A DNA stretch of 53,268 nucleotides from Escherichia phage Ecp_YSF, in the sequence record OR327751.1. One strand, given 5' to 3'. The notes beneath the pieces were generated by a model. It worked only from the letters and a program-made list of their open reading frames with translations. It did not search any database and had not been told where the DNA came from. Positions 7,739 to 39,367 of the stretch are shown here, in pieces. Every line of letters starts with the position of its first letter. The first letter of the stretch is position 1. The translations under genes were made by a program, and so were the position numbers.

Positions 7739-8483
7739 GCTCCTCGATGATGGTACAAAATACACAAAGGCTCACGCACATGATTGGGAAGACCCAGATT
7801 GCCGTATCAAAGGGCGCTGTGAACTCTTCATCAAGATTGACGGAATTCGAGCTATCCGTAATAAATCAGGTAGTGTCTGGAGTCGTAATTCCAAACCCCT
7901 ACCTCATTTGGACCACTTACAGTTCAGAGATGCTGAGATATTCCGTAATAGTTGGAATGAGACTTCTAGCATCCTCGGACGTATTGACCCACCAAGCGTC
8001 CCTCTAACCCAGGACAATGTGTATGAGTTGAGCGATGGTGCGGTTGACCCACGCTTGTACATCGGCTGGTGCAAAGACCCAAGCAATGAAAACCTTAAGG
8101 CATTGATGGATAAATATCTGGCGCTTGGTCATGAAGGTATCATTGTCCGTGATGCAAAAGGTAAGTGGTGGAAGATTGTACCATATAAATATGCCGATGT
8201 GAAGATTACTGGTATGAAAGAAGGTACTGGTGCTCTTAAAGGTATGTGTGGTTCTATCTCCTCGAACTACGGCAGTGCTGGTTCAATGGTGAAGGATTGT
8301 CTGGCAGACCACGGTATTCCAGAATCTAACACATTGATTCGTAAGTGGTTGTGGGAACATCGCCACGAGCTAATTGGTTCGATTATGCAAGTTCGATATC
8401 GTGAGAAGACAGAAGCTGGCAAGTTCCGGTTCCCGTCACTCGTTCGTTTACGTGCAGACAAAAGTGAGGAAAGTTTTGATTAA
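7728..8483 (+). CDS. ATP-dependent DNA ligase (minimal, 251 aa)
   Basis: Motif I FIKIDGIR (KxDG), motif IV HEGIIVRD, motif V WWKIVPYK. Confidence 0.8.
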   Translation: MSIKLLDDGTKYTKAHAHDWEDPDCRIKGRCELFIKIDGIRAIRNKSGSVWSRNSKPLPHLDHLQFRDAEIFRNSWNETSSILGRIDPPSVPLTQDNVYELSDGAVDPRLYIGWCKDPSNENLKALMDKYLALGHEGIIVRDAKGKWWKIVPYKYADVKITGMKEGTGALKGMCGSISSNYGSAGSMVKDCLADHGIPESNTLIRKWLWEHRHELIGSIMQVRYREKTEAGKFRFPSLVRLRADKSEESFD

Positions 8484-9102
8484 GCGATTAGCTGTTATTC
8501 TCAATGGACCTCCTGGCTGCGGTAAAGATACCATTGCAAATAAGATTGTTGCTGCCGAGGAACCTTACTTTCTTGGCAGGCGCAAATTCATTAAACACCA
8601 GTTTAAGGATGCACTGTATGAGCATACTGCCAAACACTTTCAAGTTGATGTGGACAAGTTTATTCACTACGCTTCGGACCGTGACCTCAAAGACTCTATC
8701 TCCCTTGCAGGTCTTGGTGGCAGAACACCTCGTCAGGCTCTTATTCACGTTAGCGAAGATGTGTATAAGCCTCGCTACGGACAAGACTACTTCGGTAAGG
8801 TTGAAGCTGCTCGTGTTGAAGAACTCGCGGGGCGTATGGGTGGCATTATTAATGTCATTTATCCCGATGGCGGTTTTGGTGATGAAGTCGTTGCCATTGA
8901 GTCTGCTTATGATTTTGTCCTCATTGTGCGTTTGCATCGTGATGGTTTTGATTTCACGGGCGATTCTCGCAGATACATCAACCTCCCAGACACACCTACC
9001 CGCGTAACAGTGGATGAGCATCTAGTTGATGGTAAAGTGGGTGATTCTGTATTCAAAGTGTTCAACTGGATTGAACGCGTAACTTATCAAGTAGAGAAAT
9101 AA
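8476..9102 (+). CDS. putative deoxynucleoside monophosphate kinase (P-loop)
   Basis: P-loop ILNGPPGCGKDT. Start uncertain: TTG 8476 follows GAGGA, and GTG 8464 is an alternative. The ORF-track start 8374 would overlap the ligase gene by 110 nt. Confidence 0.55.
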   Translation: MIKRLAVILNGPPGCGKDTIANKIVAAEEPYFLGRRKFIKHQFKDALYEHTAKHFQVDVDKFIHYASDRDLKDSISLAGLGGRTPRQALIHVSEDVYKPRYGQDYFGKVEAARVEELAGRMGGIINVIYPDGGFGDEVVAIESAYDFVLIVRLHRDGFDFTGDSRRYINLPDTPTRVTVDEHLVDGKVGDSVFKVFNWIERVTYQVEK

Positions 9103-9104
9103 TC

Positions 9105-9626
9105 ATGTCTTGTATGACCCAAGTTGTTGCAGTTAAACGAGTGCATCCTAATGCGAAATTACCTGTGTACGCTACTTCTGGCGCTGCTGCTGCTGATGTT
9201 TGCACTATCTCCGATAGCACTGTTGTTATCAATCCCGGCTGCTCTGCTGTTTTCGATACTGGCCTCCAATTCGAGATTCCAGTTGGATACGAACTCAAAG
9301 TACATAGCCGTTCTGGTCATGGCTTTAAGTCTGGCATTCGCCTGGCAAACTGCACAGGAATTCTGGACTCCGATTATCGTGGCAATCTTATGGTTAAGTT
9401 GCACAACGACTCGGACACAGCCTTTGTGGTTCAGCCAGGTGAACGTATTTGTCAAGTGCAAGTTAGTAAAGCTACTCAACACCATTTCGTCGAAGTTGAC
9501 CGCTTGAATGCAACTGGTCGTGGTGAAGGTGGGTTTGGCTCAACTGGTCGTGTGGAACTCGGTCAACACGAAAGACCACATATTCCAGAAGGCTTGACAG
9601 TCCACAATCACAGTATTGCCAAGTAA
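9105..9626 (+). CDS. dut: dUTPase (trimeric type)
   Basis: Motifs SGAAAADV, HSRSGHG, GILDSDYRGNL, GERICQ and GRGEGGFGSTG. About 25 aa of C-terminal extension. Confidence 0.9.
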   Translation: MSCMTQVVAVKRVHPNAKLPVYATSGAAAADVCTISDSTVVINPGCSAVFDTGLQFEIPVGYELKVHSRSGHGFKSGIRLANCTGILDSDYRGNLMVKLHNDSDTAFVVQPGERICQVQVSKATQHHFVEVDRLNATGRGEGGFGSTGRVELGQHERPHIPEGLTVHNHSIAK

Positions 9627-9665
9627 TATTCGACATTCTCAGTAACCAATTGGAACCTATCTGAA

Positions 9666-9995
9666 ATGAAACTGTCCTCACCTGTTGTAGTAAATAACCG
9701 CAAAGTTAAATTTGCATATCTAAAGTCTAATGTCACCTCCACTGGTGGCGGGACTTATCTCACCCGTGCACTTGCAGTTCGCAACGAAACAGGTGCGGAT
9801 GTTATCGTTTTCATGCTTCCTCATGGTGAAAACACAATCAAGAACGTCGAACGTATCAAGCGTGGGCGCGAAGATTTAATGTCGGCTGTTAAGCCGCTGA
9901 TACTACCATTTAAGATTGTGGTGGTTGTTGGTTCTACCCAAGCATATCTGGAAGATTTCTATAAAGATATGGCCTGGAGCGATATTAAATATTAA
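9666..9995 (+). CDS. hypothetical protein (109 aa)
   Basis: ORF with phage-like codon usage. No motif. Confidence 0.5.
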   Translation: MKLSSPVVVNNRKVKFAYLKSNVTSTGGGTYLTRALAVRNETGADVIVFMLPHGENTIKNVERIKRGREDLMSAVKPLILPFKIVVVVGSTQAYLEDFYKDMAWSDIKY

Positions 9996-10012
9996 GCGAC
10001 ACGCGTAACTAG

Positions 10013-10040
10013 GGAGGCTATCTGGCCTCCTATCTTATTC
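10013..10040 (+). terminator. putative terminator hairpin
   Basis: GGAGGC-TATCTG-GCCTCC followed by TATCTTATTC. Confidence 0.5.
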
Positions 10041-10050
10041 GGAGTCGCTT

Positions 10051-10236
10051 ATGCGCACAATACAATGTCCTAACTGCCATTATGAAATTGCAGAAGATGA
10101 TTTCATAACGCAGCAATGTCCTATCTGTGATTCATACATGCCACTAAACCGCCTGTACTTAAAGGCCGATTCTGGTTTAGGCAGCATCATTCGCATCAAT
10201 CCCGTGCAAACTCAGCCATTAGTGGATTGTGATTAA
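10051..10236 (+). CDS. small zinc-ribbon protein (61 aa)
   Basis: CPNC...CPIC pair of CxxC knuckles. RBS GGAG at 10041-10044. Confidence 0.55.
   Translation: MRTIQCPNCHYEIAEDDFITQQCPICDSYMPLNRLYLKADSGLGSIIRINPVQTQPLVDCD
10211..10233 (+). promoter_or_regulatory. weak phage-promoter-like site ahead of the packaging genes
   Basis: ATTAGTGGATTGTGAT (10218-10233) matches the ATTAGTTGGATGTGAA core at 12 of 16 positions. Confidence 0.3.
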
Positions 10237-12274
10237 AAACAAAGAGAACGAATCAATGTCAAAGACTGATGACCTCGGACCGGAGTTTAATGATACAGTA
10301 GCCTCGTATCTTGCCAAGCACTACGGTGACGTATTAAAAGTCTCAAGAGAAAGATTCTGTATTCTATCTTTGCCATTGCTCCGTCGATATATTTCAGAAA
10401 ATACTGCAATAGTTGACAGCTATGAAGAACAAATTCAAGCAGAGTTAGAAGGCCAGGGTCTTGAAAACGATGCTGTATTGCGTTCCGTTTTCAGAGCACA
10501 ACTTGAGCGTCTTCGCTCTGGCGACAAGAAAGACTCGACTGCCTATGCAGATGAGTTGAAGAAAGGTATTCAAGCAGGTGTTACTGACCGTGTTGCAGGT
10601 TCCACATTAGAGGAGCCAAACTCGGAGCATGATAACACCGAGGAACTTGTAGACAAGATTCTGCATGACCCACATAACGTGGACCCAACTGTAATCCCTG
10701 CCAAGGTTGCAGAACGTGTTCGCAAAATCTTGATGAAAAGTTTCGAAGCCTTTGGTAAATGGCAGTTCCATATTCAGATGGGATTTCCATTTCAAGCACA
10801 AGACTTTCATGATGTAATATTCAGTGTTGGTCAGAAGGTTGTTGATGGTGAGATTGACCGCTTAATAGTGACCATTCCTCCACGACACTCTAAGACTCAG
10901 CTTATGAGTATTGCATTGCCCTTGTATTCATTTTGCCACAATGAATCGAGCCATAACATTATCACCTCGTATGCAGAAGACGTTGTTCTTGAATCGAGTG
11001 GTTACATCCGTGCTGTAATGATGGACCCACTGTTCCAACGAATATTCCCGAAGGTGAGAATCGACCCTAACAAACGTTCACTTGAACGCTGGGGTACAAC
11101 CAAAGCTGGAGTTATGCACGCAGTACCTACTGGTGGTAAGCTAACTGGTAAAGGTGCTGGACTTCTTGTTGCAAAATATTCCGGCTGTTTCGTGGTGGAT
11201 GACGTTATCAAGCCGAAAGATGCCTACTCTGACACAGTTCGAGCAGAAATCAACGACCGATTTGATAACACCTTTATGTCACGTCTTGCCAACGATGGTT
11301 GCATAACTGATTCGTACGGAAACCAAATTAAGTGTGCCCGTACACCAATGGTTATCATCATGCAGCGAGTTCATGACCAGGATTTAGTTGGTTACATACT
11401 CCGTGGTGGCTCTTCTGATAAATACCATTATCTCAATATCCCAGCGATTATTGAGAAAGGAGTTGGAAGTGCTGAGTGGTATGATAAGTTAATCAAGAAG
11501 CAGAACTACACTCATGCTATTCCCATTCTGTATAATTTGAACAGGAAGGAAGAGAAGTCTGCATTATGGCCTTCACGTAAGAGCTTAGAATCCCTGGAGG
11601 CAATGAAAGAGTCTAACCCATACACATACAATTCACAGTATGCTGGCGACCCATCTGCACAAGGCCACGGCCTTATCAAAGAAGATTGGTGGCAAGAGTA
11701 TGAGCCAGACGTTTTCGACAGAAGTCGCATAGTCAGAAGTTTTATTACAGCGGATACGGCATCAACTGCCAAATCCTATTCTGATTATTCGGTCCTTAAG
11801 CATTGGGGCGTGACTAAAGAGCGTGATGTTTATTGTTTAGATATTATGCTCGGTAAGTTTGAAACTCCAGAACTCAAGACTGCTATCATCGACTTCTGGA
11901 ACAAATGCAACAAGTTGGACTTGAAGTGTGTAGGCTGTATTCCTCGTGCATTGTACATGGAAGACAAGTCTGCCGGACAATTCTTGAACCAACAATTTAT
12001 CAGAGATGGGAGTGTCCGAGTTTTACCATTGCCTCGTGATGGGATTAATGGTAATGACAAGGTAACTCGATTCCTTAACGCAATCCCATATTTCTCACAA
12101 AAGAGAATATTCTTCCCTGCTGGTCATGAACACATCGACCACGTTAGACGTGAAATACTTGGATTCACTTCTTTGGGTAGTGGTACTGGACACGACGATT
12201 GTGTCGATAACGTTTCAGATATGGTTGCAATCGAATTCTCAGGCCCAAGTGCCAACTACTCCGCATGGATGTAA
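10229..12274 (+). CDS. terminase large subunit
   Basis: Walker A-like IPPRHSKTQ and Walker B-like CFVVDDVIKP, with a nuclease half. About 190 aa of N-terminal extension. The true start may be ATG 10256. Confidence 0.85.
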   Translation: MIKNKENESMSKTDDLGPEFNDTVASYLAKHYGDVLKVSRERFCILSLPLLRRYISENTAIVDSYEEQIQAELEGQGLENDAVLRSVFRAQLERLRSGDKKDSTAYADELKKGIQAGVTDRVAGSTLEEPNSEHDNTEELVDKILHDPHNVDPTVIPAKVAERVRKILMKSFEAFGKWQFHIQMGFPFQAQDFHDVIFSVGQKVVDGEIDRLIVTIPPRHSKTQLMSIALPLYSFCHNESSHNIITSYAEDVVLESSGYIRAVMMDPLFQRIFPKVRIDPNKRSLERWGTTKAGVMHAVPTGGKLTGKGAGLLVAKYSGCFVVDDVIKPKDAYSDTVRAEINDRFDNTFMSRLANDGCITDSYGNQIKCARTPMVIIMQRVHDQDLVGYILRGGSSDKYHYLNIPAIIEKGVGSAEWYDKLIKKQNYTHAIPILYNLNRKEEKSALWPSRKSLESLEAMKESNPYTYNSQYAGDPSAQGHGLIKEDWWQEYEPDVFDRSRIVRSFITADTASTAKSYSDYSVLKHWGVTKERDVYCLDIMLGKFETPELKTAIIDFWNKCNKLDLKCVGCIPRALYMEDKSAGQFLNQQFIRDGSVRVLPLPRDGINGNDKVTRFLNAIPYFSQKRIFFPAGHEHIDHVRREILGFTSLGSGTGHDDCVDNVSDMVAIEFSGPSANYSAWM

Positions 12275-18433: not shown

Positions 18434-19882
18434 ATGTCAATCCCAATTTCTGACTTAGTTCAGGTTGATATCGCAATCTCCCCGAACGCCATTGCGACTG
18501 ATGGTTTTGGGCCATTGCTCTTCATGAGCAAAGAGTTTGTACCATCTGTTGATATATATCCAGTTCGTTCTTACACCAGTTTGAAAGAAGTTCTGGCAGA
18601 TTTCCCTGGTGGCGAGATTGCCAAAGCTGCTACCACTTGGTACTCGCAGAAACCGACTCCGAAGACTTTCCTGGTCGGCGCTATCAAGAATGATACAATG
18701 ACTCCAGCAACTCCTGCCACTGTTACTGCTGCATCTGCTGGTGTACTGTCAACGATTAAGCTGGAAACTGCTGCAACCCTACAGTTGAGTGTTAGTGGTG
18801 TTCAGTATGTCACTGACCCGATTAACTTCTCTTCTGCCGGAGATTTTGAAGAAGTTGCAACCCTGGTGACTACTGCACTGTCTTCTGTTGGTGCTGGCGT
18901 AACTGTTACTCAAGATGCTGGCAAGTTTAAGCTGACTACCTCTGCAACTGGCGCTAACGCAACTATCAGCAACGTTGGTGGTAAAGTTGGGGAAGTGTTG
19001 AAGCTGCAATCTTCCGACAATGCAGTCACTGTTGATGGCAAGAACGAGTTGTCTATTTCCTCCGACCTGGCTGCCATTGCGGATGCTCCATTTAACTTCT
19101 TCTATGTGGGCCTTGACCGCAAGTATCGTGGCAAGTTTACTCCGGTAGACAACCAAATGTCTGTGGCGAAGTGGTGCGAAGCATCCAGCAAAGTATTTGG
19201 CTGGGGCGACAGCGACAAGAATATTCTTATCAACGGCACTAACAACAGTTTCCGCCGCGCTAAGAACCAGAACCTGCGTAACACTCTGTGTGTTTACGAT
19301 GCTTCTACAAATGGTGACGAATATCCGGAAATTTCTATTCTGGGTCGTGCATCAACTGTCAACTTTAATGTTGCAAACTCTGTCCTCACTCTGGCATATA
19401 AGAAAGGTCCAGGTGTTGCCACTGCTGACTTATCTTCTGGCCAGTTGAGCGCACTACTTTCTTGTGGCGGTAACGCATTCATCTCCGTTGCTGGCAACGT
19501 AATGTTCTACAACGGCCGTATGGCTGACGGTACGTGGTTCGACTCCGTACAAGGTGTTGAATGGCTTACCCAGAAAGTTCGACTGAATGTGTTCAACTTG
19601 TTCTACACCTCCAATACCAAGATTCCTTGGACAGACACTGGTGTAGCAATGGTTAACCAGCAAGTAACCCTGGCGCTCGAACTCGCTAAGACTAACGGCC
19701 TCATTGCCCCTGGCTACGATAACGAAGGCGTCTTCTACCCAGAAGGCTACAAAGTTATCTCCACTCCGTTAGAACTCTTGCAGTCGCAGAAGGGTGAACG
19801 TATTTGGGAAGGTACTTCCTTTATTGCTATCGGTTCCGGTGCAATCCAGGGTGCTGTAATCTCTGGCAACTTCATTCAGTAA
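18434..19882 (+). CDS. tail sheath protein
   Basis: 482 aa directly upstream of a 151-aa tube-sized gene. Strong codon bias. Pattern resembles DUF3383 (from memory). Confidence 0.7.
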   Translation: MSIPISDLVQVDIAISPNAIATDGFGPLLFMSKEFVPSVDIYPVRSYTSLKEVLADFPGGEIAKAATTWYSQKPTPKTFLVGAIKNDTMTPATPATVTAASAGVLSTIKLETAATLQLSVSGVQYVTDPINFSSAGDFEEVATLVTTALSSVGAGVTVTQDAGKFKLTTSATGANATISNVGGKVGEVLKLQSSDNAVTVDGKNELSISSDLAAIADAPFNFFYVGLDRKYRGKFTPVDNQMSVAKWCEASSKVFGWGDSDKNILINGTNNSFRRAKNQNLRNTLCVYDASTNGDEYPEISILGRASTVNFNVANSVLTLAYKKGPGVATADLSSGQLSALLSCGGNAFISVAGNVMFYNGRMADGTWFDSVQGVEWLTQKVRLNVFNLFYTSNTKIPWTDTGVAMVNQQVTLALELAKTNGLIAPGYDNEGVFYPEGYKVISTPLELLQSQKGERIWEGTSFIAIGSGAIQGAVISGNFIQ

Positions 19883-19891
19883 GGGTGAACA

Positions 19892-20347
19892 GTGAAGCAA
19901 TATTCGTTTTATAATACAGACCTCCTGATTGACGGTGCTCGTGTAGACGGTTTTCAGGCAGGGCAATCTGTAATTACGGCACGCTACAACGTGCCACAAC
20001 ATGTTCCTGTAATGGATGCTTACGGCAAACTTGCTGTAGCAACCACTGCTGACCAGTCTGGGGTTATTACTTTCCCTCTGCTGCAAACGGCAGACTGGAA
20101 CGAAATTCTGTATCAACGTGCGCAGCTTACTCGTGCAACTGGCCTGTCTGGTAATAAATCCCTGTGGGAACCTTTGCAGATTCAGTTGGTAGATAAGATG
20201 GGCGACGTTCTGGTTAACGGTGTTAACGGTGCAATCCTGCAACAGCCTGCTATTGTTCGTGGTGTAACCTTTACATCCAACATGTGGGCTATCTTTGTAG
20301 AGCGCCTCACCATCGTAACTGGCCAGTATCCAGAAATCGGCGTATAA
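19892..20347 (+). CDS. tail tube protein
   Basis: 151 aa between the sheath and chaperone genes. GTG start follows GGGTGA. Confidence 0.6.
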   Translation: MKQYSFYNTDLLIDGARVDGFQAGQSVITARYNVPQHVPVMDAYGKLAVATTADQSGVITFPLLQTADWNEILYQRAQLTRATGLSGNKSLWEPLQIQLVDKMGDVLVNGVNGAILQQPAIVRGVTFTSNMWAIFVERLTIVTGQYPEIGV

Positions 20348-20362: not shown

Positions 20363-20821
20363 ATGGCTTGTGAACTTCGTCAACGCGAGTTACAAGCCGA
20401 CTCTGGTGATGTAGTCTTGGTTGGTACTCGTCAATTGAGTGCCAGCCAAGCTCTTGACCTACAAGTCGAGCTTGTTCAGAAACTTGGAACTTCAATCTTC
20501 CCATTCGTTGAGAATAAATATAACTTTGCAGACATTATTTATTTAATGCAGCAAGGTGGGACGAGTAACGAAGTAACAGAATTAATTAAACGTGTAGTGT
20601 GTATGGCAACCATTGATGGTGTCGAAGTTACTCCACGCACTATGCAAATGAAATACAACGGCAACTTGATGCTTATGCACCATGTGTTTGCATTTGTTTT
20701 GGAATCGAACTTCCTTGATTTTTTCAAGCAAGGGCTCGAACTCAACGAACGCAGACGATTGGAGGCGGTGGAAGCATCCAAGATGGCCGAGCAGAAGAAT
20801 TCGAGTCCGGAAACGATTTAA
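20363..20821 (+). CDS. tail assembly chaperone, short form (152 aa)
   Basis: Lies just upstream of the tape-measure-position gene. Confidence 0.6.
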   Translation: MACELRQRELQADSGDVVLVGTRQLSASQALDLQVELVQKLGTSIFPFVENKYNFADIIYLMQQGGTSNEVTELIKRVVCMATIDGVEVTPRTMQMKYNGNLMLMHHVFAFVLESNFLDFFKQGLELNERRRLEAVEASKMAEQKNSSPETI

Positions 20822-20997
20822 CTGCAAAGTTCCCGGAAATAAAATACTTCTTGCACCGTCCTGTAATAGAGGACAGTTCACTCTGTTCTCTTAAAGAGTT
20901 ACAAGATGGGACCTACTCTATTATGGATTTGTTGACCTTCCACGCAATACTCGATTTGCGTAACGAATTAAAACCTAAAGAAGAAGACAATGGCTAA
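20363..20997 (+). CDS. tail assembly chaperone, -1 frameshift long form (slip at T TTT TTC, 20719-20725; about 211 aa)
   Basis: The -1 frame is open 20719-20994 and ends at TAA 20995-20997, overlapping the ATG of the next gene. No start codon of its own. Confidence 0.55.
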
Positions 20998-23900
20998 TAA
21001 CATAAAAGATTTGATGAGAATGTCCGAAGCCGAATTGATTGGCTTAGGCGCTCAATATGGTCTGTCGTTCAATCCAGGTATGCGCAAACGAGATATGGCA
21101 CAGCAACTTGAATCAAGTGCTGCATCTGGTTGGATGGAAACAAATTCGCAGCTTATGGAAGAAACCCATACAGAAGATGATGGCATCTCTTATGGCACTT
21201 CCGACATGATTTCAGACTCAGCCCACATTGCACAGATGATTTCTGGCGCTGGGCTGACTGAAACATTCCATGCTGCAATGAACGGTCCAAGTCACCATGT
21301 AGAAGCTATTCATGCCTACATGGAGAAATTAGGTGTATCCGCCGATGATGTGTGGATGCACATGCCCAAAGCAAACCCGAACAAACCGGAAGGTCATTGG
21401 GGAATGCTTAATGCGTACATGCGTGATACGCTGACAGGCCATCAAGATATAATGCCAGAGCTTCCTGGACATTATTCGGGCGACATTATGGGCGAGTATT
21501 CCACAAACCGTGGAGATATTGCCAAGTCGTTCGGCTATCTTGCCCACATGTATGTTGACCGTGAACAATACGACAACCCAGACCGCTATGCACGAGATGT
21601 TTATCGTGTAGCCAAACGTTTAGAATCAGAATTGCCGCAAAACTTCCGAGAAGTTGCTGCGGTATCTGCAATGAATGTAGGAAATAAGTCGGGGCCAAAA
21701 CTTTCATACATGGATTCATTGCCTAAACTTGGCTCTGAATCAATTGTTAGTGGTATCCAACACCCTCGACAGCCACTTAACGCATCTGGTTTACCACTTG
21801 GTTCATTTGGCAGCGGTATTAATGCCGAATACTCATTATCTGCATCCTTGTCTGGCTCGCCAGGCTGGTCTGATGTAAGTAGGACTCTGTACCAAGATGT
21901 TTCTAGCGTAGTTAAGTCTGCGGCAAAGGTCTATTCTGGTGATTCTGAAAGAGGAATGAACGCGTACCGCACTCAATCTTCTGACAGAGATTTGATTCTT
22001 GATTCTGCTTCCCGCTATGCAGACATTATAGATGTTCGTTCTGGGTATGAGAATCTTAAGAAAGATATTGGTGACGACCCTCGCTACTCTGGTGCATCCA
22101 TCCGTGGCGTACTTGAGAATGCTCACCAATATAATGAGGCAGAGGTAAGCAAGACATTTGACCCTGCTGAACGCTTAAGAAACACTGAACCTGCCGAACT
22201 AAGCCCTTCAACAGAGTTTATTACGCAACTCGATTCACCAACGAGTTGGAACTCTGCTCGCGCTCGTCGTGAGAGTATTGCTATATCTAACTTGGACTCT
22301 GCTCCACAACCAGCTCCGAAAGAAGGCCCAATCCATTATCACAACATGGAACAGGGAACTCAGGAATGGTTGGACTTCCGCAAACAATACGACATTACTG
22401 GCTCCACTGTTGGTTCGTTTCTTGGTAACAATGAATACACCCGACCTTGGGCTGCAATGATTGATAAAATTGGCCTACAACGCGGAAAGGGGCCAAGTGA
22501 ATTTACTAAAAGAATGTTCGAAGCAGGTCATCGGACGGAAGAAATTGCTCGTAACCGTGTCGCCAAAGAGTTTGGATTCGATATCGAGCAAGCTGGCGCA
22601 ATAACAAATGACAATTATCCGTCGTTCATGTATTCTCCAGATGGCCTTATCGGTGATGACGCGATTTGGGAACACAAGAATCCTGAAAGGGCTAAAAAGT
22701 TTTCTAATCTCTCTGCTGGCGAGCATAAGGACTATTTCGACCAAATTCAATTTGGCTTGCTTGTATCTGGCCGTAGTCGTGCACTGTTCTCTCAGACAAT
22801 CGGGGACAAGACGGTATCTGAGTGGATTGAGAAAGACGAGGGATGGTACGAGCGCAACAAAGATAAGATTGATTCTACTATTGGGCGTCTCAATGCTGGT
22901 CGAAAGTTTGTTGAAGATAATCCAGACTTACCTAATGATGAGTTAATCAAGGGTGCTCGTGCTGCAATGACTGGCGATGGCATCTGGAAAGATGTTAAGC
23001 AAAGGTCGACTCGTGGATATTCTGCCGCAGCTGGAACACCTGATGACCCATTCATAGGCAACCGCACTGATGCTGGAATTGGCGAGGCCACGACTTCTGC
23101 CGTAGGCTCTGACAGCACGACTGGCAATGACTCGATGGCAGTATCTGTCAAGAAAGGTATTCTTGCTGCACAGGAAGAAAACAAACTGCGCGGACAAGAT
23201 GCCGACTTTGGTGGAAATGATGGTCGTGGTGGCGGTGGTGGCTTCTGGGATACATTTGATGCCAGCAGTTATGGTATCAGCGGAGGTGGTTCTGGTGGCG
23301 GTGGTCGTGGTGGTTGGAGAGTTGGCGGTAGCTTCTCAGATGACTTCGGTCGTGCTGGTGGGGCATTGGCTGCTGGCGTAGCTGGTGGCAGTATTGGTTC
23401 ATTATCCAATGGCGCAATGAATGCCCTCATGATGACTCCTTGGGGTCGTGTAGCTGGCATGGCTATTGGTGCTGCCCAGATTGGAAACGAAGCTCTGGAA
23501 GGTCTGAACGACTTCTATGGCAATTCTTTAGATGCTGGTGTTAATAATCCTAACGAGTATTCTTCCATGACTCAGGGCATGGAAATGTTGGGACTTAACT
23601 CACAACAAGCCAATCGACTCAATCAAACCACACATAGTGCCTATAACACCCTCCTAAATGGCGACCCCAGCGGCGCTGTGAACATCGTTCAGGGAACCCG
23701 TGGTCTTATCACAATTGGCGACATTCGTGCGGCACAGGGCGACCCTGTGGCCCTAGCGCGGATAATGCGTGAGCGTGGTCAGGAACGGGGTTGGAGTCAG
23801 GCCCGTATTGCTGGTGCAATGCAAATGGCTGGTCTGGATGGTATGGCTCGTGCCTATGACCGTACAGAATACAGCATGGGCGAGGCTGAGGCGAACGTTA

Positions 23901-24661
23901 AGCGCGGAGCCGACTCAAACTATGCCGAAGGCGTTGCACAGCTAGGAATCGCGCAGACGGAGCGTGCTGGCGTACTGCCTGGATACGCTGTTCCGCAAGC
24001 TGCAATTTCATACGGCAGCACCTTTATTGAGGCAGGTGGTGACGCAGCCAGAGTGATGCGTATGACCTCCAACGGTACAGCCGATGCAGCACGTAATGTT
24101 TATGACTTTATCGCGGGAGAAGAGTCAGGGAACCGCGATTTTAACGCAGATGGTTCGGTAGTTACATCGCCAACTGGTGCTAAAGGTCGTATGCAAGTTC
24201 TTGATTCAACTTCTCGTGACCCTGGCTTTGGTGTTCGTCCTGCCAAAGATAACTCACTTGAAGAACGTGCTCGTGTTGGTCGTGATTATTACGATGCAAT
24301 GCTTAAGCGATATAATGGTGACGCTGAGAAGGCTATGGCGGCGTATACAGATGGTGCCGGGACTGTTGATGATGCTATCAACAAACATGGAACCGACTGG
24401 CTGAACGCTGTTCCACTACAGGCACAGAACCGTGTCAAGAAGTACCGCGAATGGGCTTCTCAGGGAGATTCTATTGCAGAAGGTGCAACTGGATTCACCA
24501 GAAACGGACTGTCCTATGGTCAGACACAGCCCACCATAGTTAACGTTGAAGTCAAAGCTACCGTAAACAACAAACAAGCGTCTGCAACCGTGTCAACTCC
24601 GAACGGTCAAACTGTTACCCAAACAATCAACATGGGTAATGGTGCAATGGAACGCAGATAA
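20990..24661 (+). CDS. tape-measure-position multidomain protein: HeH/Rho_N-like N-terminus, YqaJ-type PD-(D/E)XK nuclease domain, Gly-rich/hydrophobic segment, C-terminal lytic transglycosylase
   Basis: HeH pattern LMRMSEAELIGLGAQYGLSFNPGMRKRDMAQQL. YqaJ pattern QGTQEWLDFRKQYDITGSTVG...YSPDG...WEHK, with D551, E561 and K563. SLT pattern EESGNRDFN...GAKGRMQVLDST...AAYTDGAG. Confidence 0.7.
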   Translation: MANNIKDLMRMSEAELIGLGAQYGLSFNPGMRKRDMAQQLESSAASGWMETNSQLMEETHTEDDGISYGTSDMISDSAHIAQMISGAGLTETFHAAMNGPSHHVEAIHAYMEKLGVSADDVWMHMPKANPNKPEGHWGMLNAYMRDTLTGHQDIMPELPGHYSGDIMGEYSTNRGDIAKSFGYLAHMYVDREQYDNPDRYARDVYRVAKRLESELPQNFREVAAVSAMNVGNKSGPKLSYMDSLPKLGSESIVSGIQHPRQPLNASGLPLGSFGSGINAEYSLSASLSGSPGWSDVSRTLYQDVSSVVKSAAKVYSGDSERGMNAYRTQSSDRDLILDSASRYADIIDVRSGYENLKKDIGDDPRYSGASIRGVLENAHQYNEAEVSKTFDPAERLRNTEPAELSPSTEFITQLDSPTSWNSARARRESIAISNLDSAPQPAPKEGPIHYHNMEQGTQEWLDFRKQYDITGSTVGSFLGNNEYTRPWAAMIDKIGLQRGKGPSEFTKRMFEAGHRTEEIARNRVAKEFGFDIEQAGAITNDNYPSFMYSPDGLIGDDAIWEHKNPERAKKFSNLSAGEHKDYFDQIQFGLLVSGRSRALFSQTIGDKTVSEWIEKDEGWYERNKDKIDSTIGRLNAGRKFVEDNPDLPNDELIKGARAAMTGDGIWKDVKQRSTRGYSAAAGTPDDPFIGNRTDAGIGEATTSAVGSDSTTGNDSMAVSVKKGILAAQEENKLRGQDADFGGNDGRGGGGGFWDTFDASSYGISGGGSGGGGRGGWRVGGSFSDDFGRAGGALAAGVAGGSIGSLSNGAMNALMMTPWGRVAGMAIGAAQIGNEALEGLNDFYGNSLDAGVNNPNEYSSMTQGMEMLGLNSQQANRLNQTTHSAYNTLLNGDPSGAVNIVQGTRGLITIGDIRAAQGDPVALARIMRERGQERGWSQARIAGAMQMAGLDGMARAYDRTEYSMGEAEANVKRGADSNYAEGVAQLGIAQTERAGVLPGYAVPQAAISYGSTFIEAGGDAARVMRMTSNGTADAARNVYDFIAGEESGNRDFNADGSVVTSPTGAKGRMQVLDSTSRDPGFGVRPAKDNSLEERARVGRDYYDAMLKRYNGDAEKAMAAYTDGAGTVDDAINKHGTDWLNAVPLQAQNRVKKYREWASQGDSIAEGATGFTRNGLSYGQTQPTIVNVEVKATVNNKQASATVSTPNGQTVTQTINMGNGAMERR

Positions 24662-24695: not shown

Positions 24696-24736
24696 AACAT
24701 TATTTGAATATGTATTAATTTCAATAGGTGTATAAC

Positions 24737-25834
24737 ATGCCGTGGATGCGTGGTATAGAGATAGTTGTCTCAAGAAAGGATGACCCAGAAACCAAGTCTG
24801 TGTTTAAAGCACACAAGATTGATTTCACCATCCGGTCAACTGTTGGTTGGCCAGCAGATACTGCCGATATTACTCTATACAACCTGGGCGTCGATGAAGT
24901 TAAATTCCTTCAAGACAAGTCCTATGGTGATATGTATATTGAAATTCGTGCAGGATATTACGAAGACGAGCGTGTCGTTAATGCTGGTCATAATAAGTAT
25001 CAAAGCCCAGGTCAGATGGATTCGGAAGTAAGGGTTGAGATTGGCCAAGTCCTTCCAACAATCTTCTCTGGCATCGTAACAAACGCAGTGGGATTCAGAC
25101 GCCCTCCAGAACACATAACACAATTGTTTTGTATCTCCAAAGCCTATGGTGCATCTACTGAGTTTACTCAGATGAGGGACATTCCAAATGGGGCAACCTT
25201 GGAAGATGCCATTCGTTCTATGTGTGCTGACTATGGCTTCTCAACCATTTCATCTTTTGGTGTTGAAGAATCTGTATTCAAAACCAAGTTGAAGTTAGGT
25301 CGAGTATTCCATGACACATTCTTGGAAGAATTTCGGGCCTTGCTTGGGGAATATAATTTACTATTCTCAGTAACAACTGGTGAGATTCAAATCTTTCCAG
25401 ACACCTACGGCAATAAAGATGCTGTAGACAGAATGTCAAAAGACCGTGAACCAATCAAGCTGGATGCCAATCAGGTTATTGGGAACCCTATTGCTGGAAT
25501 TGCAACATACTCCTTGAATACATTTCTTAACGCCAGCTATCAGCCAGGAATGATTCTGGATGTATCTCCTTTGTTGGGAGAACAATTGCTGGCTAATGGC
25601 GTTACTTCGGTAAATGGAAAAGGTGTTGTATTAAACACAGACCAAAGCGTGTTCCGTTGGGCGATGGAAGATAAATACTTCATCACAGAAGTTGTCCATC
25701 ATGGCTCAACCCATGAAACTGTTTTCCAAACATCCATCACTGCAATGCTTGGTGGCAATACTGCAATGGGCGGTAAAGAAGCGGCTTGGCAGCAAGCCTA
25801 CTTAAACAGTGGAATGGCTATGGAGTCTTTCTAA
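24737..25834 (+). CDS. putative baseplate hub / tail protein
   Basis: ATG 24737 lies 6 nt after AGGTG. The ADITLYNLG-type motif recalls gpD/XkdQ-like hub proteins (from memory). Confidence 0.4.
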   Translation: MPWMRGIEIVVSRKDDPETKSVFKAHKIDFTIRSTVGWPADTADITLYNLGVDEVKFLQDKSYGDMYIEIRAGYYEDERVVNAGHNKYQSPGQMDSEVRVEIGQVLPTIFSGIVTNAVGFRRPPEHITQLFCISKAYGASTEFTQMRDIPNGATLEDAIRSMCADYGFSTISSFGVEESVFKTKLKLGRVFHDTFLEEFRALLGEYNLLFSVTTGEIQIFPDTYGNKDAVDRMSKDREPIKLDANQVIGNPIAGIATYSLNTFLNASYQPGMILDVSPLLGEQLLANGVTSVNGKGVVLNTDQSVFRWAMEDKYFITEVVHHGSTHETVFQTSITAMLGGNTAMGGKEAAWQQAYLNSGMAMESF

Positions 25835-35382: not shown

Positions 35383-36482
35383 TGGCTTACACTACCTTTT
35401 CACAAACCAAGAATAACCAACTATTAGAACCAATGTTCTTTGGTCAGAACGTTAACGTTGCTCGATATGACCAACAGAAGTACAGCATCTTCGAGAAGTT
35501 AATCGAGAAGCAGTTATCTTTCTTTTGGCGACCTGAGGAGGTTGATGTTAGCCAGGACCGAATTGACTATGCTGGTCTTCCTGAGTGTGAGAAACACATT
35601 TTCACCAGCAATTTACGATACCAAATCCTGCTTGATTCCATTCAGGGGCGTGGACCAACTACAGTTTTGCTACCAATTGTGAGCATTCCTGAGCTTGAAA
35701 CTTGGATTGAAACTTGGTCATTCTCAGAGACAATTCATTCTCGTTCTTACACGCATATTATTCGTAATATCGTGACAGACCCAAGCGTAATTTTCGATGA
35801 AATTGTGGAGAATGAGCATATTAAAATGCGTGCAATTGGCATCTCCCAATATTATGACGAGCTTCAACACCTAACTTCCATGTGGCATCTGCATGAAGAC
35901 AAAGTTTCTCTTCGTGAGCTTAAGAAGAAGCTGTATTTATGCCTCATGTCTATCAATGCATTGGAAGCAATCCGCTTTTATGTCAGCTTTGCTTGCTCAT
36001 TTGCCTTCGCTGAACGCAAGTTAATGGAAGGAAATGCCAAGATTATTCGCTTAATTGCTCGTGATGAAGCACTCCATTTGACTGGAACTCAACACATGCT
36101 GAACCTTCTTGCAAGCGGTGTTGATGACCCAGAAATGGCCGAAATTGCTAAAGAATGCCGCCAAGAATGCCAAGAAATGTTCGAAAATGTGGCCCAACAA
36201 GAGAAAGATTGGGCTGATTATTTGTTCAAAGATGGCTCAATGATTGGCTTAAATAAGCAAATTCTGTGCGGATATGTGGAATATATCACGAATATTCGTA
36301 TGCAAGCAGTTGGATTGGATGCTCCATTCAAAGGTGCTACTAACCCGATTCCTTGGATTAACGCATGGTTGAATTCGGATGCTGTACAAGTCGCTCCACA
36401 AGAAACGGAGATTAGTTCGTACCTTGTCGGGCAGATTGATTCCGAAGTGGACACCAATGCTCTTGGCGGATTTGAGCTTTAA
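35382..36482 (+). CDS. nrdB: class Ia ribonucleotide reductase beta subunit
   Basis: Near-collinear with E. coli NrdB as I recall it ([11 protein letters not shown]...), including the C-terminal tail [11 protein letters not shown]. Confidence 0.95.
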
Positions 36483-36495
36483 CGATTATATGCGA

Positions 36496-36529
36496 GAAGA
36501 GATTCGATGCGTTAGCGTCGTTTCTCTTT
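36496..36529 (+). terminator. putative terminator after nrdB
   Basis: Two-part hairpin (GAAGAGA..CGATGC-GTTA-GCGTCG..TCTCTTT) whose 3' arm is T-rich. Confidence 0.5.
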
Positions 36530-36571
36530 GAGCTAGAATAAGACAAGTAAATTAAATATTTATTTATTCCC

Positions 36572-37115: not shown

Positions 37116-39056
37116 ATGATTACTATCACCACTCAAACTATCAAATCTGTTGTTCCTGCTATCACTGCTCTGGTATACCGTGCCAAAGAGAAGCAGAACT
37201 ATATGCAGCCTCAGACTTGTGCTATTGCTGCCCTAGCCATATTCAAGATGATGACGTCTTTCACTCGTGATGACGTTGTTCCTGCCATTGCGATGGTTGA
37301 GCTGGCTTCTGCTTCTATTGCTGATGCCAACCGCTACAACAACGATTTGAAAGCAATGCACTATGTTGACCCAGCTATCAACCTCATTGGTTTGGCTAAG
37401 CACTTTGGCTTCATCACCATGAACGAAGACAAGTCATTCCAGCAAACTGACACATGGGTTGAACTGGTTACAACCAAAGACACAGCAGTGCCATTCACTG
37501 AGCGTGTTACATCTGAATCTCGTCGCAAGCCTTTCGTTAAAGGTGGCAAAGTTAAGCCATCCAAAACTCTGAAAGCTGCAATCGAATTCCTGCAAGATAC
37601 TGAGTACCATGTGGAGACTGAGATGGTTCGCATCATCCAGTCCATGCTTGAGCAACGTACTTATGGTGGCTTGCAGATGCCAGAAGCAATCCAAACTGAA
37701 CTCCATGTTTGGAACAATGCTGTAGCAATGATGAATCAGGATAAGCTGTATTCTGACTACTTTGCTGATAACCGTGGTCGTCTGTATCATGTAGCATGTG
37801 CTGGTCCTAACCCACAATCCTCTGACTTTGCTCGTTGCTTGTATTCTCACAATGTTGAGAACATCGTTAAGAAGTTTAACGAAGATGGTTCTACTACCAT
37901 TGCATACAACATGTTCATGGCAGAGCTGGAAGATATTTCCGGTGGTGAATGGTGCAGTGCTAAGCGTTTAACTTATGTTGCTCAGAATCCAGCTGGTTCA
38001 CTTGCTCGCATGATGAACATGCCTAAAGCTGAGCGTCCTTCTAAGCCATTCACTTATGTTCGTCTGGCTCTGGATTGGTTCAAGTTTGAGACTACAGGTG
38101 AATGCGATTCTCGTGTAGGCTTTGGCTTAGATGCTAAATGTTCTGGTACTCAATATCTGGCATTCATTGCTGGTAACATGGAAATGGCTCGTGCAACAGG
38201 TCTGGTTGATTCTGAGACTAAAGCATCTGACCCATACCAGTTGAGTCTTCGTGAACTGTTGAAGCTGCTGGACAAGTCTTCAATGAAACCATCTCCTGAA
38301 ATTATGGATGAATTCTTGAATCCGAAAGCTGGTCGTAAGTTTATCAAAACTCCATACATGGCTATCCAATATGGTGGTGGTAAAGCTGCACTAACTGGTT
38401 CTTCTGACTTTATCTCCTACATGACAGAAGCTCTCCAGATTCCTATGGAGAAAGCTGAGGCATTTGCTGAACTGTGTGTAGAAGCAATCCATAACGCATT
38501 GGGTGCTAAGATTAACATGTTCATTGAGAAAGCTGCTGATGCTGCATACAACCGTTGTGTTGAACTTGGTAAAGAGTACATCACATACCGTCACACTGAT
38601 GGTCAGGTTGTAATGAAGCCTTGCTTCCCATCTCGTGAAATCTGTGAGGCATTCAGCATTCGTGTTGACTCCCAAACTCGTGTTATCTTTGGTCAGATTC
38701 AGGAGAATAAGCCTTGGACCATTCGTGAATCCAATCCAACTAAAGAAGAATTCAAGCGTACTTTCGTTGTTAACTACATTCAAGGTATTGACGCACTGGT
38801 TGCTCGTACTGTTGCAGTTAAAGCTAAAGAAGCTGGTCTTCGTGGCTTTACTTCAATTCACGATTGTTTCCGTTGCTGCTTAGCTGATGCTCCACGTATG
38901 ATGGAAGTTATTCGTGCAGCATATGTTGAAATCTTCGTAACCAACAATCAATTCGAGAATCTGTCTAAGCAACTCGGTGGCATTCAGATGTATCATGAGA
39001 ACATCGTAACCGAAGAGCTTCTGATGAGCGAACACGCTTACTACTTCTGTCAATAA
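37116..39056 (+). CDS. single-subunit DNA-directed RNA polymerase (T7-like, compact, 646 aa)
   Basis: Motif A-like GLDAKCSGTQYLA, motif B-like KFIKTPYMAIQYGGG, motif C FTSIHDCF. RBS GGAG upstream. Confidence 0.9.
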   Translation: MITITTQTIKSVVPAITALVYRAKEKQNYMQPQTCAIAALAIFKMMTSFTRDDVVPAIAMVELASASIADANRYNNDLKAMHYVDPAINLIGLAKHFGFITMNEDKSFQQTDTWVELVTTKDTAVPFTERVTSESRRKPFVKGGKVKPSKTLKAAIEFLQDTEYHVETEMVRIIQSMLEQRTYGGLQMPEAIQTELHVWNNAVAMMNQDKLYSDYFADNRGRLYHVACAGPNPQSSDFARCLYSHNVENIVKKFNEDGSTTIAYNMFMAELEDISGGEWCSAKRLTYVAQNPAGSLARMMNMPKAERPSKPFTYVRLALDWFKFETTGECDSRVGFGLDAKCSGTQYLAFIAGNMEMARATGLVDSETKASDPYQLSLRELLKLLDKSSMKPSPEIMDEFLNPKAGRKFIKTPYMAIQYGGGKAALTGSSDFISYMTEALQIPMEKAEAFAELCVEAIHNALGAKINMFIEKAADAAYNRCVELGKEYITYRHTDGQVVMKPCFPSREICEAFSIRVDSQTRVIFGQIQENKPWTIRESNPTKEEFKRTFVVNYIQGIDALVARTVAVKAKEAGLRGFTSIHDCFRCCLADAPRMMEVIRAAYVEIFVTNNQFENLSKQLGGIQMYHENIVTEELLMSEHAYYFCQ

Positions 39057-39097: not shown

Positions 39098-39298
39098 ATG
39101 AATACCATGCAAATCAATCAAATCGAAAACTGTTTCAATCCTCATCACACCTGTGACATGAGTGATTTATCTCGTCCTACGGTGGAGGAGACTAAAGACT
39201 TCTTAGAATTGTTATCAGAATATAAGCAAGAGTCGCATGTATTATTGCACGCATTCTTGCATAATTCTGGATTCTTTGATACAGAAATACCGTTCTGA
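39098..39298 (+). CDS. small acidic protein ending in ..FFDTEIPF (66 aa)
   Basis: ATG 39098 lies 6 nt after GGAG (39088-39091). The ORF-track start ATG 39074 has no spaced RBS. Confidence 0.55.
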   Translation: MNTMQINQIENCFNPHHTCDMSDLSRPTVEETKDFLELLSEYKQESHVLLHAFLHNSGFFDTEIPF

Positions 39299-39303
39299 TA
39301 CTT

Positions 39304-39329: not shown

Positions 39330-39367
39330 CTAATTAATCTTAGAGCTGGCTTCAATATTGTAGCCAG

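Follow-up and report, generated by a model that had tools for sequence, protein, structure and literature searches.

A predicted lambda-Exo/YqaJ-type exonuclease module within the putative tape-measure/ejection protein of phiEcoM-GJ1-like phages

T5 pb2 is a tape measure with an enzymatic module. The Pa193 tape measure (gp41, which carries a putative transglycosylase) forms a trimer whose C-termini sit at the tail tip; in the proposal of the Pa193 authors, it stays unfolded within the tube and folds upon release. In phage 812, the N-termini of the trimeric tape measure are touched by the genome end inside the tube, and the tape measure of mycobacteriophage TM4 is reported to carry a peptidoglycan-hydrolase motif. 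The cargo enzymes of Pa193 gp41, TM4 and T5 pb2 act on the cell wall, whereas the predicted cargo in Escherichia phage Ecp_YSF is a DNA exonuclease of the lambda Exo, LHK-Exo and YqaJ (PF09588) type. Enzymes of the lambda-Exo family act on double-stranded DNA ends carrying a 5' phosphate. The Ecp_YSF domain resembles them in its whole fold, catalytic D-E-K residues and 5'-phosphate arginine, but instead of being a soluble enzyme of ~200–230 aa, it forms a central domain of a 1223-aa virion protein specified by a late structural operon, and no Bet, RecT or ERF annealase adjoins it.

The window analysed (OR327751.1; 53,268 nucleotides) is the complete 53.1-kb genome of Ecp_YSF, a phiEcoM-GJ1-like (Chaseviridae) myophage. 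By PHROG profile search, the tail genes were ordered as sheath (18434–19882, phrog_205), tube (19892–20347, phrog_280), assembly chaperone (20363..20821, phrog_11820, E=2.7e-58), the 1223-aa ORF with an ATG start (20990..24661, PHROG 19855) and, directly downstream, the baseplate hub (24728..25834, phrog_196), whose ortholog in 4HA13 is listed as a homolog of T4 gp27; all features given here are on the plus strand. Frame analysis of the 152-aa chaperone ORF, which specifies the G-like product, located a –1 slippery heptamer T_TTT_TTC (20719–20725) and an open –1 frame of 92 codons for the GT-like frameshift product (20719..20994), ending where the 1223-aa ORF starts (20994 vs 20990). A small ORF equivalent to this –1 frame is annotated in ST32 and is also present in the remote relatives L005 and L007, in which a homolog of the 1223-aa protein occupies the same slot with a frameshifted chaperone upstream. 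Both the PHROG gene order and the slippery site bear out the first-pass annotation, which had assigned the ORF to the tape-measure slot after a frameshifted chaperone and before the baseplate genes. The slot and a peptidoglycan-cleaving module are shared with Pa193 gp41, and among the ORFs of the window no alternative in the tail module was able to serve as tape measure.

The same annotation had proposed a YqaJ/lambda-Exo domain with an intact PD-(D/E)XK triad at aa ~450–640. Profile, PDB and fold searches concurred in placing it at aa 449–662 (22334..22975). Pfam PF09588 matched aa 459–595 (E=2.2e-12; 47.9 bits, gathering score 22; profile positions 1–149 of 150), a PHROG of RecE-like exonucleases matched aa 438–628 (E=4e-19), and the NCBIfam lambda-exonuclease family TIGR03033 gave E=2e-12 at 47.5 bits, below its 68-bit cutoff. 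In the PDB, LHK-Exo 3syy was matched by sequence (E=2.5e-6), and the family profile recovered both 3syy (E=1.9e-16) and lambda Exo 1avq (E=5.6e-7). The AlphaFold model of the domain, with pLDDT above 90, was aligned by Foldseek to lambda Exo 3slp over 215 of 226 residues (E=6e-7) and to LHK-Exo with a TM score of 0.77. Among free-standing proteins, its nearest kin are recombination exonucleases of phages, which act as Exo partners to Bet, RecT or ERF recombinases.

Alignments to homologs and to lambda Exo placed the active-site motif YSPDGLIGDDAIWEHK at aa 548–563 (22631..22678), and the numbering of D551, E561 and K563 proved correct, these residues corresponding to lambda D119, E129 and K131 in the profile alignment. 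R464 (22379..22381) is aligned with R28 of the 5'-phosphate pocket in 1avq. Together with Y582 and Q585, these four residues are invariant in 62 homologs (43–92% identity). Among 11 remote giants (~1200–1500 aa, 27–40% identity), the active-site residues are kept at every aligned column, in an alignment where P0109 and P0138 lack N-terminal columns and P0108 is unaligned; R464 is retained in 10 of the 11, nothing of P0109 being aligned at that column. The dN/dS of the nuclease module is 0.078, low like that of the SLT enzyme domain, and the module is under strong purifying selection. It is highly likely that, in this contractile-tailed phage, the ORF specifies a virion protein of the tape-measure slot and that its nuclease is functional and selected.

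At the N-terminus, a Rho_N/HeH-like helix-extended-helix motif (aa 5–46; 21002..21127), a putative nucleic-acid contact already noticed in the first reading, gave weak but concordant signals, and is followed by a conserved, mostly helical domain (aa 74–381; 21209..22132) with D76, H124, H161, D203, E221 and others invariant. Beyond the nuclease lies a Gly-rich low-complexity stretch leading into a Gly/Ala-zipper segment at aa 791–832 (together aa 741–832; 23210..23485; low pLDDT). The Gly-rich stretch previously marked at aa ~740–800 was upheld (33% Gly over aa 745–835); the hydrophobic segment said to follow it is present but only moderately hydrophobic, since its best 19-residue Kyte-Doolittle mean of 1.0 (aa 792–831) points to a Gly/Ala zipper instead of a classical transmembrane helix. 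A conduit-like segment of this kind also occurs in enzyme-bearing tape measures, which, like this protein, lie in the virion lumen and presumably leave ahead of the DNA. Predicted structure and conservation define a compact all-helical domain at aa 839–994 (23504..23971; pLDDT 88–97 over most of it and ~72 at the C-terminal edge), and conservation along the protein is highest at aa 836–960 (mean identity 0.70).

An SLT (GH23) lytic transglycosylase domain, expected at aa ~1040–1150, was identified at aa 1039–1160 (24104..24469) by Pfam, PDB profile and Foldseek, with E1045 (24122–24124) as the catalytic residue. Pfam PF01464 matched aa 1058–1134 above its gathering score (E=1.2e-6), at least 90% of the homologs keep E1045–S1046, and structural matches of the region included Slt, MltD and T7 gp16; the helical and SLT domains align jointly to Slt-type transglycosylases in Foldseek. 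The T7 core protein 9jyy_I was a weak structural match through the SLT domain. T7 gp16 is likewise a virion protein of more than 1200 aa that contains an SLT domain and is ejected as a trans-envelope conduit, but it is stored in a podovirus head and has no nuclease, while the Ecp_YSF gene belongs to the tail module of a myovirus. A conserved beta-rich tail with three predicted strands at low pLDDT (aa 1185–1223; 24542..24658) is presumed, by likeness to the C-termini of the Pa193 tape measure, to be the anchor at the hub or tip.

Searches with Pfam and NCBIfam profiles gave no match of the 1223-aa protein to any tape-measure profile, and the AF2 model predicts beads on a string, different from the canonical coiled-coil tape measure. 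Tails of this Chaseviridae-type family are 117–132 nm long, corresponding to 0.97–1.06 Å per residue against 1.5 in Pa193; accordingly ~360–430 residues are surplus to the need of an alpha-helical ruler. In agreement with a virion location, the ortholog AC4HA13_0067 was detected in purified 4HA13 virions with 64–67% coverage, which by itself does not prove peptides from the nuclease module, and it is listed second in the high-abundance peptide figure of the 4HA13 paper; the preparation was not perfectly clean, as the proteome included the non-structural SSB.

The nuclease-bearing architecture is common to all of the ~80 cultured phiEcoM-GJ1-like/Chaseviridae records, and is also found in remote metagenomic and apparent prophage relatives. 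The arrangement is thus family-wide and not peculiar to Ecp_YSF. Among the papers searched in full text, none describing this arrangement was found, in line with the first-pass annotation, which did not recognise it as described; databases already contain it, however, in PHROG 19855 and among precomputed pairs of Pfam domains, and 'putative endonuclease' is the label given to the protein in one record. Judged from sequence, a complete lambda-Exo/YqaJ-type 5'→3' dsDNA-end exonuclease is predicted to be a permanent module of the tape-measure/ejection protein. Sliding identity against MLP1 and P0005 delimited a segment comprising the nuclease domain and both linkers (aa ~397–689; 22178..23056) that departs from its flanks (99% vs 59% identity). 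The segment falls into at least four deep classes of alleles; MLP1 8968–10022 was not alignable to TH29 at the DNA level, and pS reached 0.86 within the segment against ~0.4 in the flanks. These comparisons show the nuclease module to be a recombining cassette, which is a new observation. Despite the swaps, total protein length is held at ~1190–1300 aa across homologs.

As an overall explanation, we tentatively favor an ejected tape-measure exonuclease that processes the incoming genome end. By analogy with the solved phages, three copies would lie in the tail lumen with C-termini anchored at the hub and Rho_N-like N-termini abutting the genome end descended into the tube. Three folded ~24-kDa domains side by side exceed the ~3–4 nm lumen, so storage would have to be unfolded or staggered. 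Upon sheath contraction, the protein would be expelled C-terminus first, the SLT domain opening the peptidoglycan and the Gly zipper and helical part helping to form an inner-membrane conduit; the N-terminal half with the nuclease would exit last, beside the leading DNA end, and refold in the cell. We know of no myophage precedent for entry of the N-terminal half of a tape measure into the cytoplasm, and give an even chance to action of the nuclease after ejection. Three neighbouring nuclease domains could then form a lambda-Exo-like ring and resect the 5' strand of the linear genome as it enters. Resection may leave the genome end ill suited to end-dependent attack by the host (RecBCD type), or may uncover the ~3-kb terminal repeat and so permit annealing and recombination-primed replication; the two effects could also combine. 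A direct terminal repeat of 3,120 bp is predicted in 4HA13; the Ecp_YSF assembly is circular, and the physical genome ends are not readable from it.

That the enzyme acts on the genome end of the phage itself is possible, at somewhat below even odds: given the family's specificity for ends with 5' phosphate and the retained equivalent of R28, the phage genome is the obvious end at entry. Only about three copies of the protein are expected per virion, which counts against genome-end processing. For recombination and replication, Ecp_YSF has separate genes for a T7 gp6-type FEN exonuclease, an SSB and a DprA-like protein, which count against a need for the tape-measure nuclease, and no annealase partner was recognisable among the ORFs scanned. 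Mu gpN and T4 gp2, virion proteins that accompany the genome end and decide its fate, would be functional analogs only; they are not nucleases, and the likeness is one of presumed function.

The intact, selected active site and the time-zero action offered by virion delivery would suit an injected weapon on non-self DNA (host, plasmid, prophage, co-infecting phage or defence-system DNA), an anti-competitor or counter-defence effector delivered ahead of phage gene expression. The cassette with its deep, flank-discordant alleles has the pattern typical of conflict-interface proteins, and host systems fight exactly at this step, SNIPE being associated with tape measures during injection. The allelic diversity is, however, explained just as well if the tape measure evades a host sensor or inhibitor; chromosomes and plasmids that are circular and intact lack the 5'-phosphorylated dsDNA ends needed, no endonuclease partner is fused, and some three molecules per infection are very few for bulk degradation. 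Such a role is considered unlikely.

It is slightly more doubtful that the nuclease acts inside the cell that makes the virions, the abundant late cytoplasmic precursor serving as a recombination or maturation exonuclease, for instance in processing concatemers or branched DNA ahead of packaging, with its presence in virions incidental. The domain is free to fold in the cytoplasm, its nearest free-standing relatives are recombination exonucleases, annotation and a PHROG scan found no other lambda-Exo/RecE-type gene in the Ecp_YSF genome, and alkaline nucleases of the same superfamily serve genome maturation in herpes- and baculoviruses. Such roles are nevertheless already filled by the gp6-type exonuclease and a second endonuclease ('endonuclease VII' in the PO103-1 annotation, HNH endonuclease in PHROGs), and tape measures are normally chaperone-coated in the cytoplasm. 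If delivery were irrelevant, there would be no obvious reason for keeping the fusion in every lineage, including the remote and apparent prophage ones, and the Rho_N-like N-terminus and head-proximal half fit contact with a DNA end.

Similarly improbable is a non-catalytic role, as a DNA-end clamp or plug in the tail or as a structural spacer adding bulk or length. Lambda-Exo rings encircle DNA, injected end-binding proteins exist in Mu gpN and T4 gp2, the domain belongs to the half of the protein that should point towards the genome end, and the tightly kept total length would agree with a spacer. A pure binder or spacer, however, usually loses catalytic residues, while the triad, the 5'-phosphate arginine and the Y582/Q585 motif are invariant across the alleles and remote relatives, an invariance that catalysis would predict, and the dN/dS is as low as that of the SLT enzyme domain. 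Lastly, that the ORF is a tail fiber or an artefactual fusion of neighbouring genes is scarcely credible: many GenBank records label homologs 'tail fiber', 'tail tube initiator' or 'virion structural protein', and the missing profile matches and globular beads would fit, but the ORF is unbroken in ~80 independent genomes and many metagenomes, its order between tube with frameshifted chaperone and hub is invariable, its SLT and Gly-zipper modules are typical of tape-measure/ejection proteins, the tail module holds no other candidate, and fiber genes are present separately, downstream.

A predicted DNA exonuclease as cargo sets this protein apart from the known tape measures, whose cargo enzymes act on the cell wall. 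Altogether, the conserved nuclease module suggests that the phage may ship a DNA-end-processing enzyme together with its genome.

The ORF at 20990-24661 on the plus strand encodes a protein of 1223 aa that carries, at aa ~449-662, a nuclease module of the lambda-Exo/YqaJ type. This domain had been proposed from the sequence alone in the first-pass annotation, and was recovered by Pfam, PHROG, PDB-profile and fold searches alike. Pfam YqaJ (PF09588) was matched at aa 459-595 over profile positions 1-149 of 150, with an E-value of 2.2e-12 and 47.9 bits against a gathering score of 22, and the PHROG family "RecE-like recombination exonuclease" was matched at aa 438-628 (E=4e-19); the NCBIfam lambda-exonuclease model TIGR03033 gave E=2e-12, with a score under that model's own cutoff. 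By comparison of the family profile with the PDB, LHK-Exo (3syy, E=1.9e-16) and lambda exonuclease (1avq, E=5.6e-7) were identified, and in the alignment to 1avq the residues R464, D551, E561 and K563 correspond to R28, D119, E129 and K131 of lambda, of which we take R28 to form the 5'-phosphate pocket and the other three to be catalytic. The PD-(D/E)XK triad had been numbered correctly as D551/E561/K563 and is intact, as judged from this alignment and from its invariance among homologs. An AlphaFold model built on 62 homologs was predicted with pLDDT >90 across aa ~449-689, and Foldseek matched the model to lambda Exo (3slp, E=6e-7, 215 of 226 residues) and to LHK-Exo (3sz4, TM 0.77); the three-dimensional fold of lambda Exo is present in the predicted domain. 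At the level of sequence profiles and modelled structure, the identification of the nuclease is solid.

In the alignment of 62 full-length homologs (43-92% identity), D551, E561, K563 and R464 never vary, nor do the motifs TGS, YSPDG, WEHK and Y..DQ.Q, and the nuclease region is among the best-conserved parts of the protein, with variable linkers on its flanks. The codon-level comparison with phage TH29 gave a dN/dS of 0.078 for the nuclease and 0.05-0.15 for the other modules. The nuclease-bearing protein was found in all the phiEcoM-GJ1-like/Chaseviridae records recovered, so that the architecture is not peculiar to Ecp_YSF. In Aeromonas phage phiA050 (3138-6935 of the stretch analyzed), an uninterrupted frame of 1266 codons retains the active-site motif; the record of this phage annotates the frame only as two small fragments.

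A HMMER search with the domain alone detected a second tier of remote proteins, 960-1530 aa in length, which carry the domain internally, and four of the seven scanned with Pfam also possess an SLT domain. Eleven of these remote relatives keep the equivalents of D551, E561, K563 and R464 wherever the columns align; R464 is kept in 10 of the 11, the remaining one (P0109) having no aligned residue at that column. Three of the remote proteins were compared with those of the Chaseviridae and share 25-33% identity with them across 44-70% of their length. Two of the large relatives could be placed on contigs, both between a terminator-sheath-tube-chaperone block and the baseplate genes. The YqaJ+SLT protein occupies the same tail slot at 8001-11567 in the remote stretches L005 and L006 and at 8001-12341 in L007, a small ORF being called between the chaperone and the large protein in L005 and L007. 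One remote protein probably belongs to a prophage, since it lies inside bacterial contigs of 4.8 Mb and 1.6 Mb, and given such probable prophage relatives the YqaJ+SLT architecture probably reaches beyond the lytic Chaseviridae. The neighbours of the remote proteins fall into Pfam families that take their names from Pseudomonas phages E217 and Pa193. The tape measures of Pbunavirus were considered as natural homologs lacking the insert and were rejected: no homology to them is detectable at the BLAST level, and the Pseudomonas matches listed for the remote relative P0094 are all free-standing exonucleases.

The exact 141-nt direct repeat of 1-141 and 53128-53268, detected by comparison of the end with the start, indicates that the window is the whole of a genome of 53,127 bp, assembled as a circle. 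The assembly being circular, with the 141-nt overlap and without terminal-repeat information, the physical termini cannot be read from it. The DNA of the 20990-24661 ORF is 98% identical to that of Shigella phage vB_Shi_2KOFFS and Escherichia phage PO103-1, and those relatives with a family assignment in their records belong to the Chaseviridae, subfamily Cleopatravirinae. A T7-like RNA polymerase is present in these phiEcoM-GJ1-like myoviruses; the single-subunit RNA polymerase ORF of the window (37116-39056, 646 aa) covers positions 155-816 of the PHROG RNA polymerase profile, its N-terminus being much shorter than that of the profile, and the ORF of phage MLP1 is equal in length.

The genes for tail sheath (18434-19882), tail tube (19892-20347) and tail assembly chaperone (20363-20821), all on the plus strand and assigned by PHROG, precede the large ORF. 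Within the chaperone ORF a -1 slippery heptamer, T_TTT_TTC, is located at 20719, and the -1 frame is open to 20994, at the start of the large ORF. A frameshifted chaperone at this place is the G/GT signature of the tape-measure slot, and downstream of the large ORF follows the baseplate hub gene (24728-25834, plus strand, PHROG). The tape-measure position assigned in the first-pass annotation is thus borne out by the frameshift, by the gene order and by the hub downstream. No other ORF suitable as a tape measure was found within the tail module of the window, and the slot between frameshifted chaperone and baseplate hub is kept also in phage 4HA13 and in the remote relatives.

The presence of the protein in virions is established for the 4HA13 ortholog only. 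AC4HA13_0067 (128 kDa) was detected by LC-MS/MS in particles banded twice in CsCl, and is the second entry in the figure of high-abundance peptides in the 4HA13 paper. Since its coverage of 64-67% exceeds the C-terminal 43%, the N-terminal half must be at least largely present in the 4HA13 virions, this coverage being no proof of peptides from the nuclease module and the preparation containing also the non-structural SSB.

The protein includes several modules besides the nuclease. The SLT lytic transglycosylase recognised at first reading was confirmed by Pfam (PF01464, GH23; 28.5 bits against a threshold of 21.3), by the PDB profile and by the predicted structure; the region matches Slt and MltD both by sequence profile and by structure, and 90% or more of the homologs keep the catalytic Glu-Ser motif, E1045-S1046. 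On the N-terminal side of the SLT domain lies a compact domain, helical throughout (aa 839-994), which is the most conserved stretch of the protein. A Gly-rich stretch followed by a hydrophobic segment had also been described: the former is real (33% Gly), but the latter is only moderately hydrophobic, and a classical transmembrane helix was rejected because the Kyte-Doolittle maximum for a 19-mer is only 1.0. Being rich in small-xxx-small motifs, this segment looks like a Gly/Ala zipper. The HeH/Rho_N-like pattern at the N-terminus gave no match to PF07498 in a Pfam search with the Ecp_YSF protein itself, DUF7722 alone appearing at E=0.21, but the family profile and the structure model lend it weak support; PF07498 matched 10 of 27 relatives weakly (best E 0.0035, at an E-value limit of 10 irrespective of the curated bit cutoff). 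Between this N-terminus and the nuclease lies a conserved, mostly helical domain (aa ~74-381, 21209-22132) with invariant D76, H124, H161, D203 and E221. No relatives of this domain outside the family were found in Pfam, PDB or BFVD, and it could serve as an additional enzyme or bind DNA or protein.

The position, the frameshifted chaperone, the SLT domain and the Gly-zipper altogether argue for a tape-measure identity. No tape-measure family profile of Pfam or NCBIfam was matched, and the AF2 prediction consists of globular domains joined by disordered linkers, not of a long coiled coil; for these reasons we call the product a tape-measure-slot ejection protein with a putative ruler role. Tail lengths agree with this: the ratio of tail length to protein length is 0.97 Å per residue in 4HA13 (116.5 nm, 1204 aa) and 1.06 Å in phage ST32 (132 nm, 1241 aa), whereas the tape measure of Pa193 (tail ~130 nm, 858 aa) reaches 1.5 Å, the value expected of a long alpha-helical ruler. 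By this difference ~360-430 residues are in excess, a number close to that in the additional globular modules, which is arithmetic rather than proof.

As a new finding, the nuclease module and the linkers beside it behave as a cassette exchanged horizontally, at odds with the remainder of the gene. The Ecp_YSF protein is only 57-58% identical to MLP1 (P0006) and to the metagenomic homolog P0005 within the nuclease module, and 85-99% identical to them in every other module. The divergent segment has sharp boundaries at aa ~397-689 (22178-23056). At the DNA level this stretch of MLP1 is unalignable to TH29 while the remaining gene is similar, and synonymous sites are saturated inside the cassette only (pS 0.86 versus ~0.4 in the flanks). 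Among the 62 homologs the module falls into four or more classes, whose members share at least 70% identity, against ~55-60% from one class to another. The discordance runs in both directions: the homologs P0002 and P0006 have flanks 99% identical and nucleases 59% identical, while P0079 and P0085 have flanks 44% identical and nucleases 84% identical. The active site is kept in all the classes, and the enzyme is therefore retained while its surface is repeatedly replaced. Earlier authors remarked only on the unusually high divergence of the tape-measure-slot gene between close relatives. The pattern suggests either a conflict with a host factor or an adaptation to a variable partner.

For a search of such a partner, MLP1 and TH29 were compared genome-wide, and from several divergent islands of the early region the most suggestive gene, the 245-aa ORF next to SSB (44674-45411), was taken for a co-variation test. 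It was rejected as a co-varying partner, being 57-72% identical between phages despite nuclease modules 99-100% identical. This early gene, for which no informative Pfam match was obtained, is hypervariable in its own right, with protein identity of 57-72% where the DNA of the tape-measure gene is 94-98% identical to the window; the MLP1 version is longer (301 aa). An annealase partner (RecT, Bet or ERF) was not recognised in ten additional ORFs of the window, eight of them replication or early ORFs, a scan that leaves three proteins of 243-288 aa without assigned function; the proteins of recombination type among the ten are only SSB, a DprA-like protein and a FEN-type exonuclease. The gene for the DprA-like recombination mediator (43531-44064), with weak Pfam support and strong PHROG support, is located in the early region just upstream of that for the short SSB (44190-44564).

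Lambda-Exo-type enzymes work on dsDNA ends bearing a 5' phosphate, and the end of the entering phage genome is the only obvious end of this kind in the cell at the time of entry. Since the family needs 5'-phosphate dsDNA ends, the arginine R464 is invariant and no other end is obvious, the model that we prefer has the leading end of the phage's own genome as the substrate of the nuclease. The tail tip of Pa193 binds the C-termini of three tape-measure chains, and the authors of that work proposed an unfolded state in the lumen, with the protein folding once it has been released. The genome of phage 812 reaches down into the tube, where its end abuts head-on the N-termini of the tape-measure trimer; the tape measure of lambda assists passage of the genome across the inner membrane. 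Setting beside these systems the observed anatomy and conservation of the protein and the observed virion association of its 4HA13 ortholog, a course of ejection may be proposed. The C-terminal tail would, by analogy, be anchored at the hub; upon contraction the SLT domain and conduit-forming parts would be expelled first, and the Rho_N-like N-terminus and the nuclease, nearest the DNA end, would leave last, beside that end. The nuclease module might then resect or capture the leading genome end. Such processing could shield the genome from end-dependent host nucleases, and resection could expose a terminal repeat, predicted to be ~3 kb in 4HA13, for annealing or for recombination-primed replication. 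In its full form, which we put forward tentatively and consider rather doubtful, the proposal is that three lambda-Exo modules, tethered to the end of the genome through the Rho_N-like N-terminus, enter with the DNA, form a ring on that end and resect it within seconds. The protein would then be the first end-processing exonuclease of an injection machinery, and the rapid exchange of cassettes would be the trace of an arms race with host systems, of the RecBCD or SNIPE type, by which the entering DNA end or the tape measure itself is sensed or attacked.

The same cassette diversity is also what would be expected of a weapon injected against foreign DNA, but the requirement for a dsDNA end as substrate and the low copy number speak against this use. 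The nuclease may alternatively play its role in the producing cell. A reading of the domain as a non-catalytic clamp or spacer is disfavoured by the invariance of the catalytic residues, and the view that the product is not a tape measure at all is essentially excluded.

Tape-measure and ejection proteins are known with cell-wall hydrolases, and to our knowledge no such protein with a DNA nuclease has been known. Enzyme-bearing tape measures as such are not novel; the DNA-exonuclease cargo is. The first-pass annotation had not recognised the arrangement as a described one: this stands for the papers searched, as full-text searches, with many subscription papers outside their reach, found none naming a nuclease in this or any tape measure, the two nearest co-occurrences of the terms having no bearing on the matter, but the family itself was already in databases, as PHROG 19855, as precomputed Pfam YqaJ+SLT pairs and in one record under the name "putative endonuclease". 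The gene is inconsistently named across about 80 GenBank records, with "tail fiber", "tail tube initiator" and "hypothetical" among the labels. Several records give the tape-measure name to an unrelated 73-aa ORF; in those of PO103-1 and MLP1, this "tail tape measure protein" lies next to thymidylate synthase (36344-36565 and 39216-39437, respectively, of the stretches analyzed), and the gene that does occupy the tape-measure slot goes under "tail tube initiator" or "hypothetical". The record PP952070.1, "Staphylococcus phage Pel53" (host Staphylococcus hyicus), contains a phiEcoM-GJ1-like tape-measure gene and an early gene resembling those of E. coli phages, and its host label looks doubtful.

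The proposal is readily testable with the cultured coliphages phiEcoM-GJ1, ST32, PO103-1 and 4HA13, the catalytic residues being unambiguous and the cassettes providing natural alleles. If the module is active after ejection, the view of the first seconds of infection would change: the phage would bring its own DNA-end-processing enzyme, with no reliance on early gene expression. This would bear on the survival of linear genomes against RecBCD and nucleases associated with the membrane, and on the way in which genomes with terminal redundancy form circles or begin to replicate by recombination.
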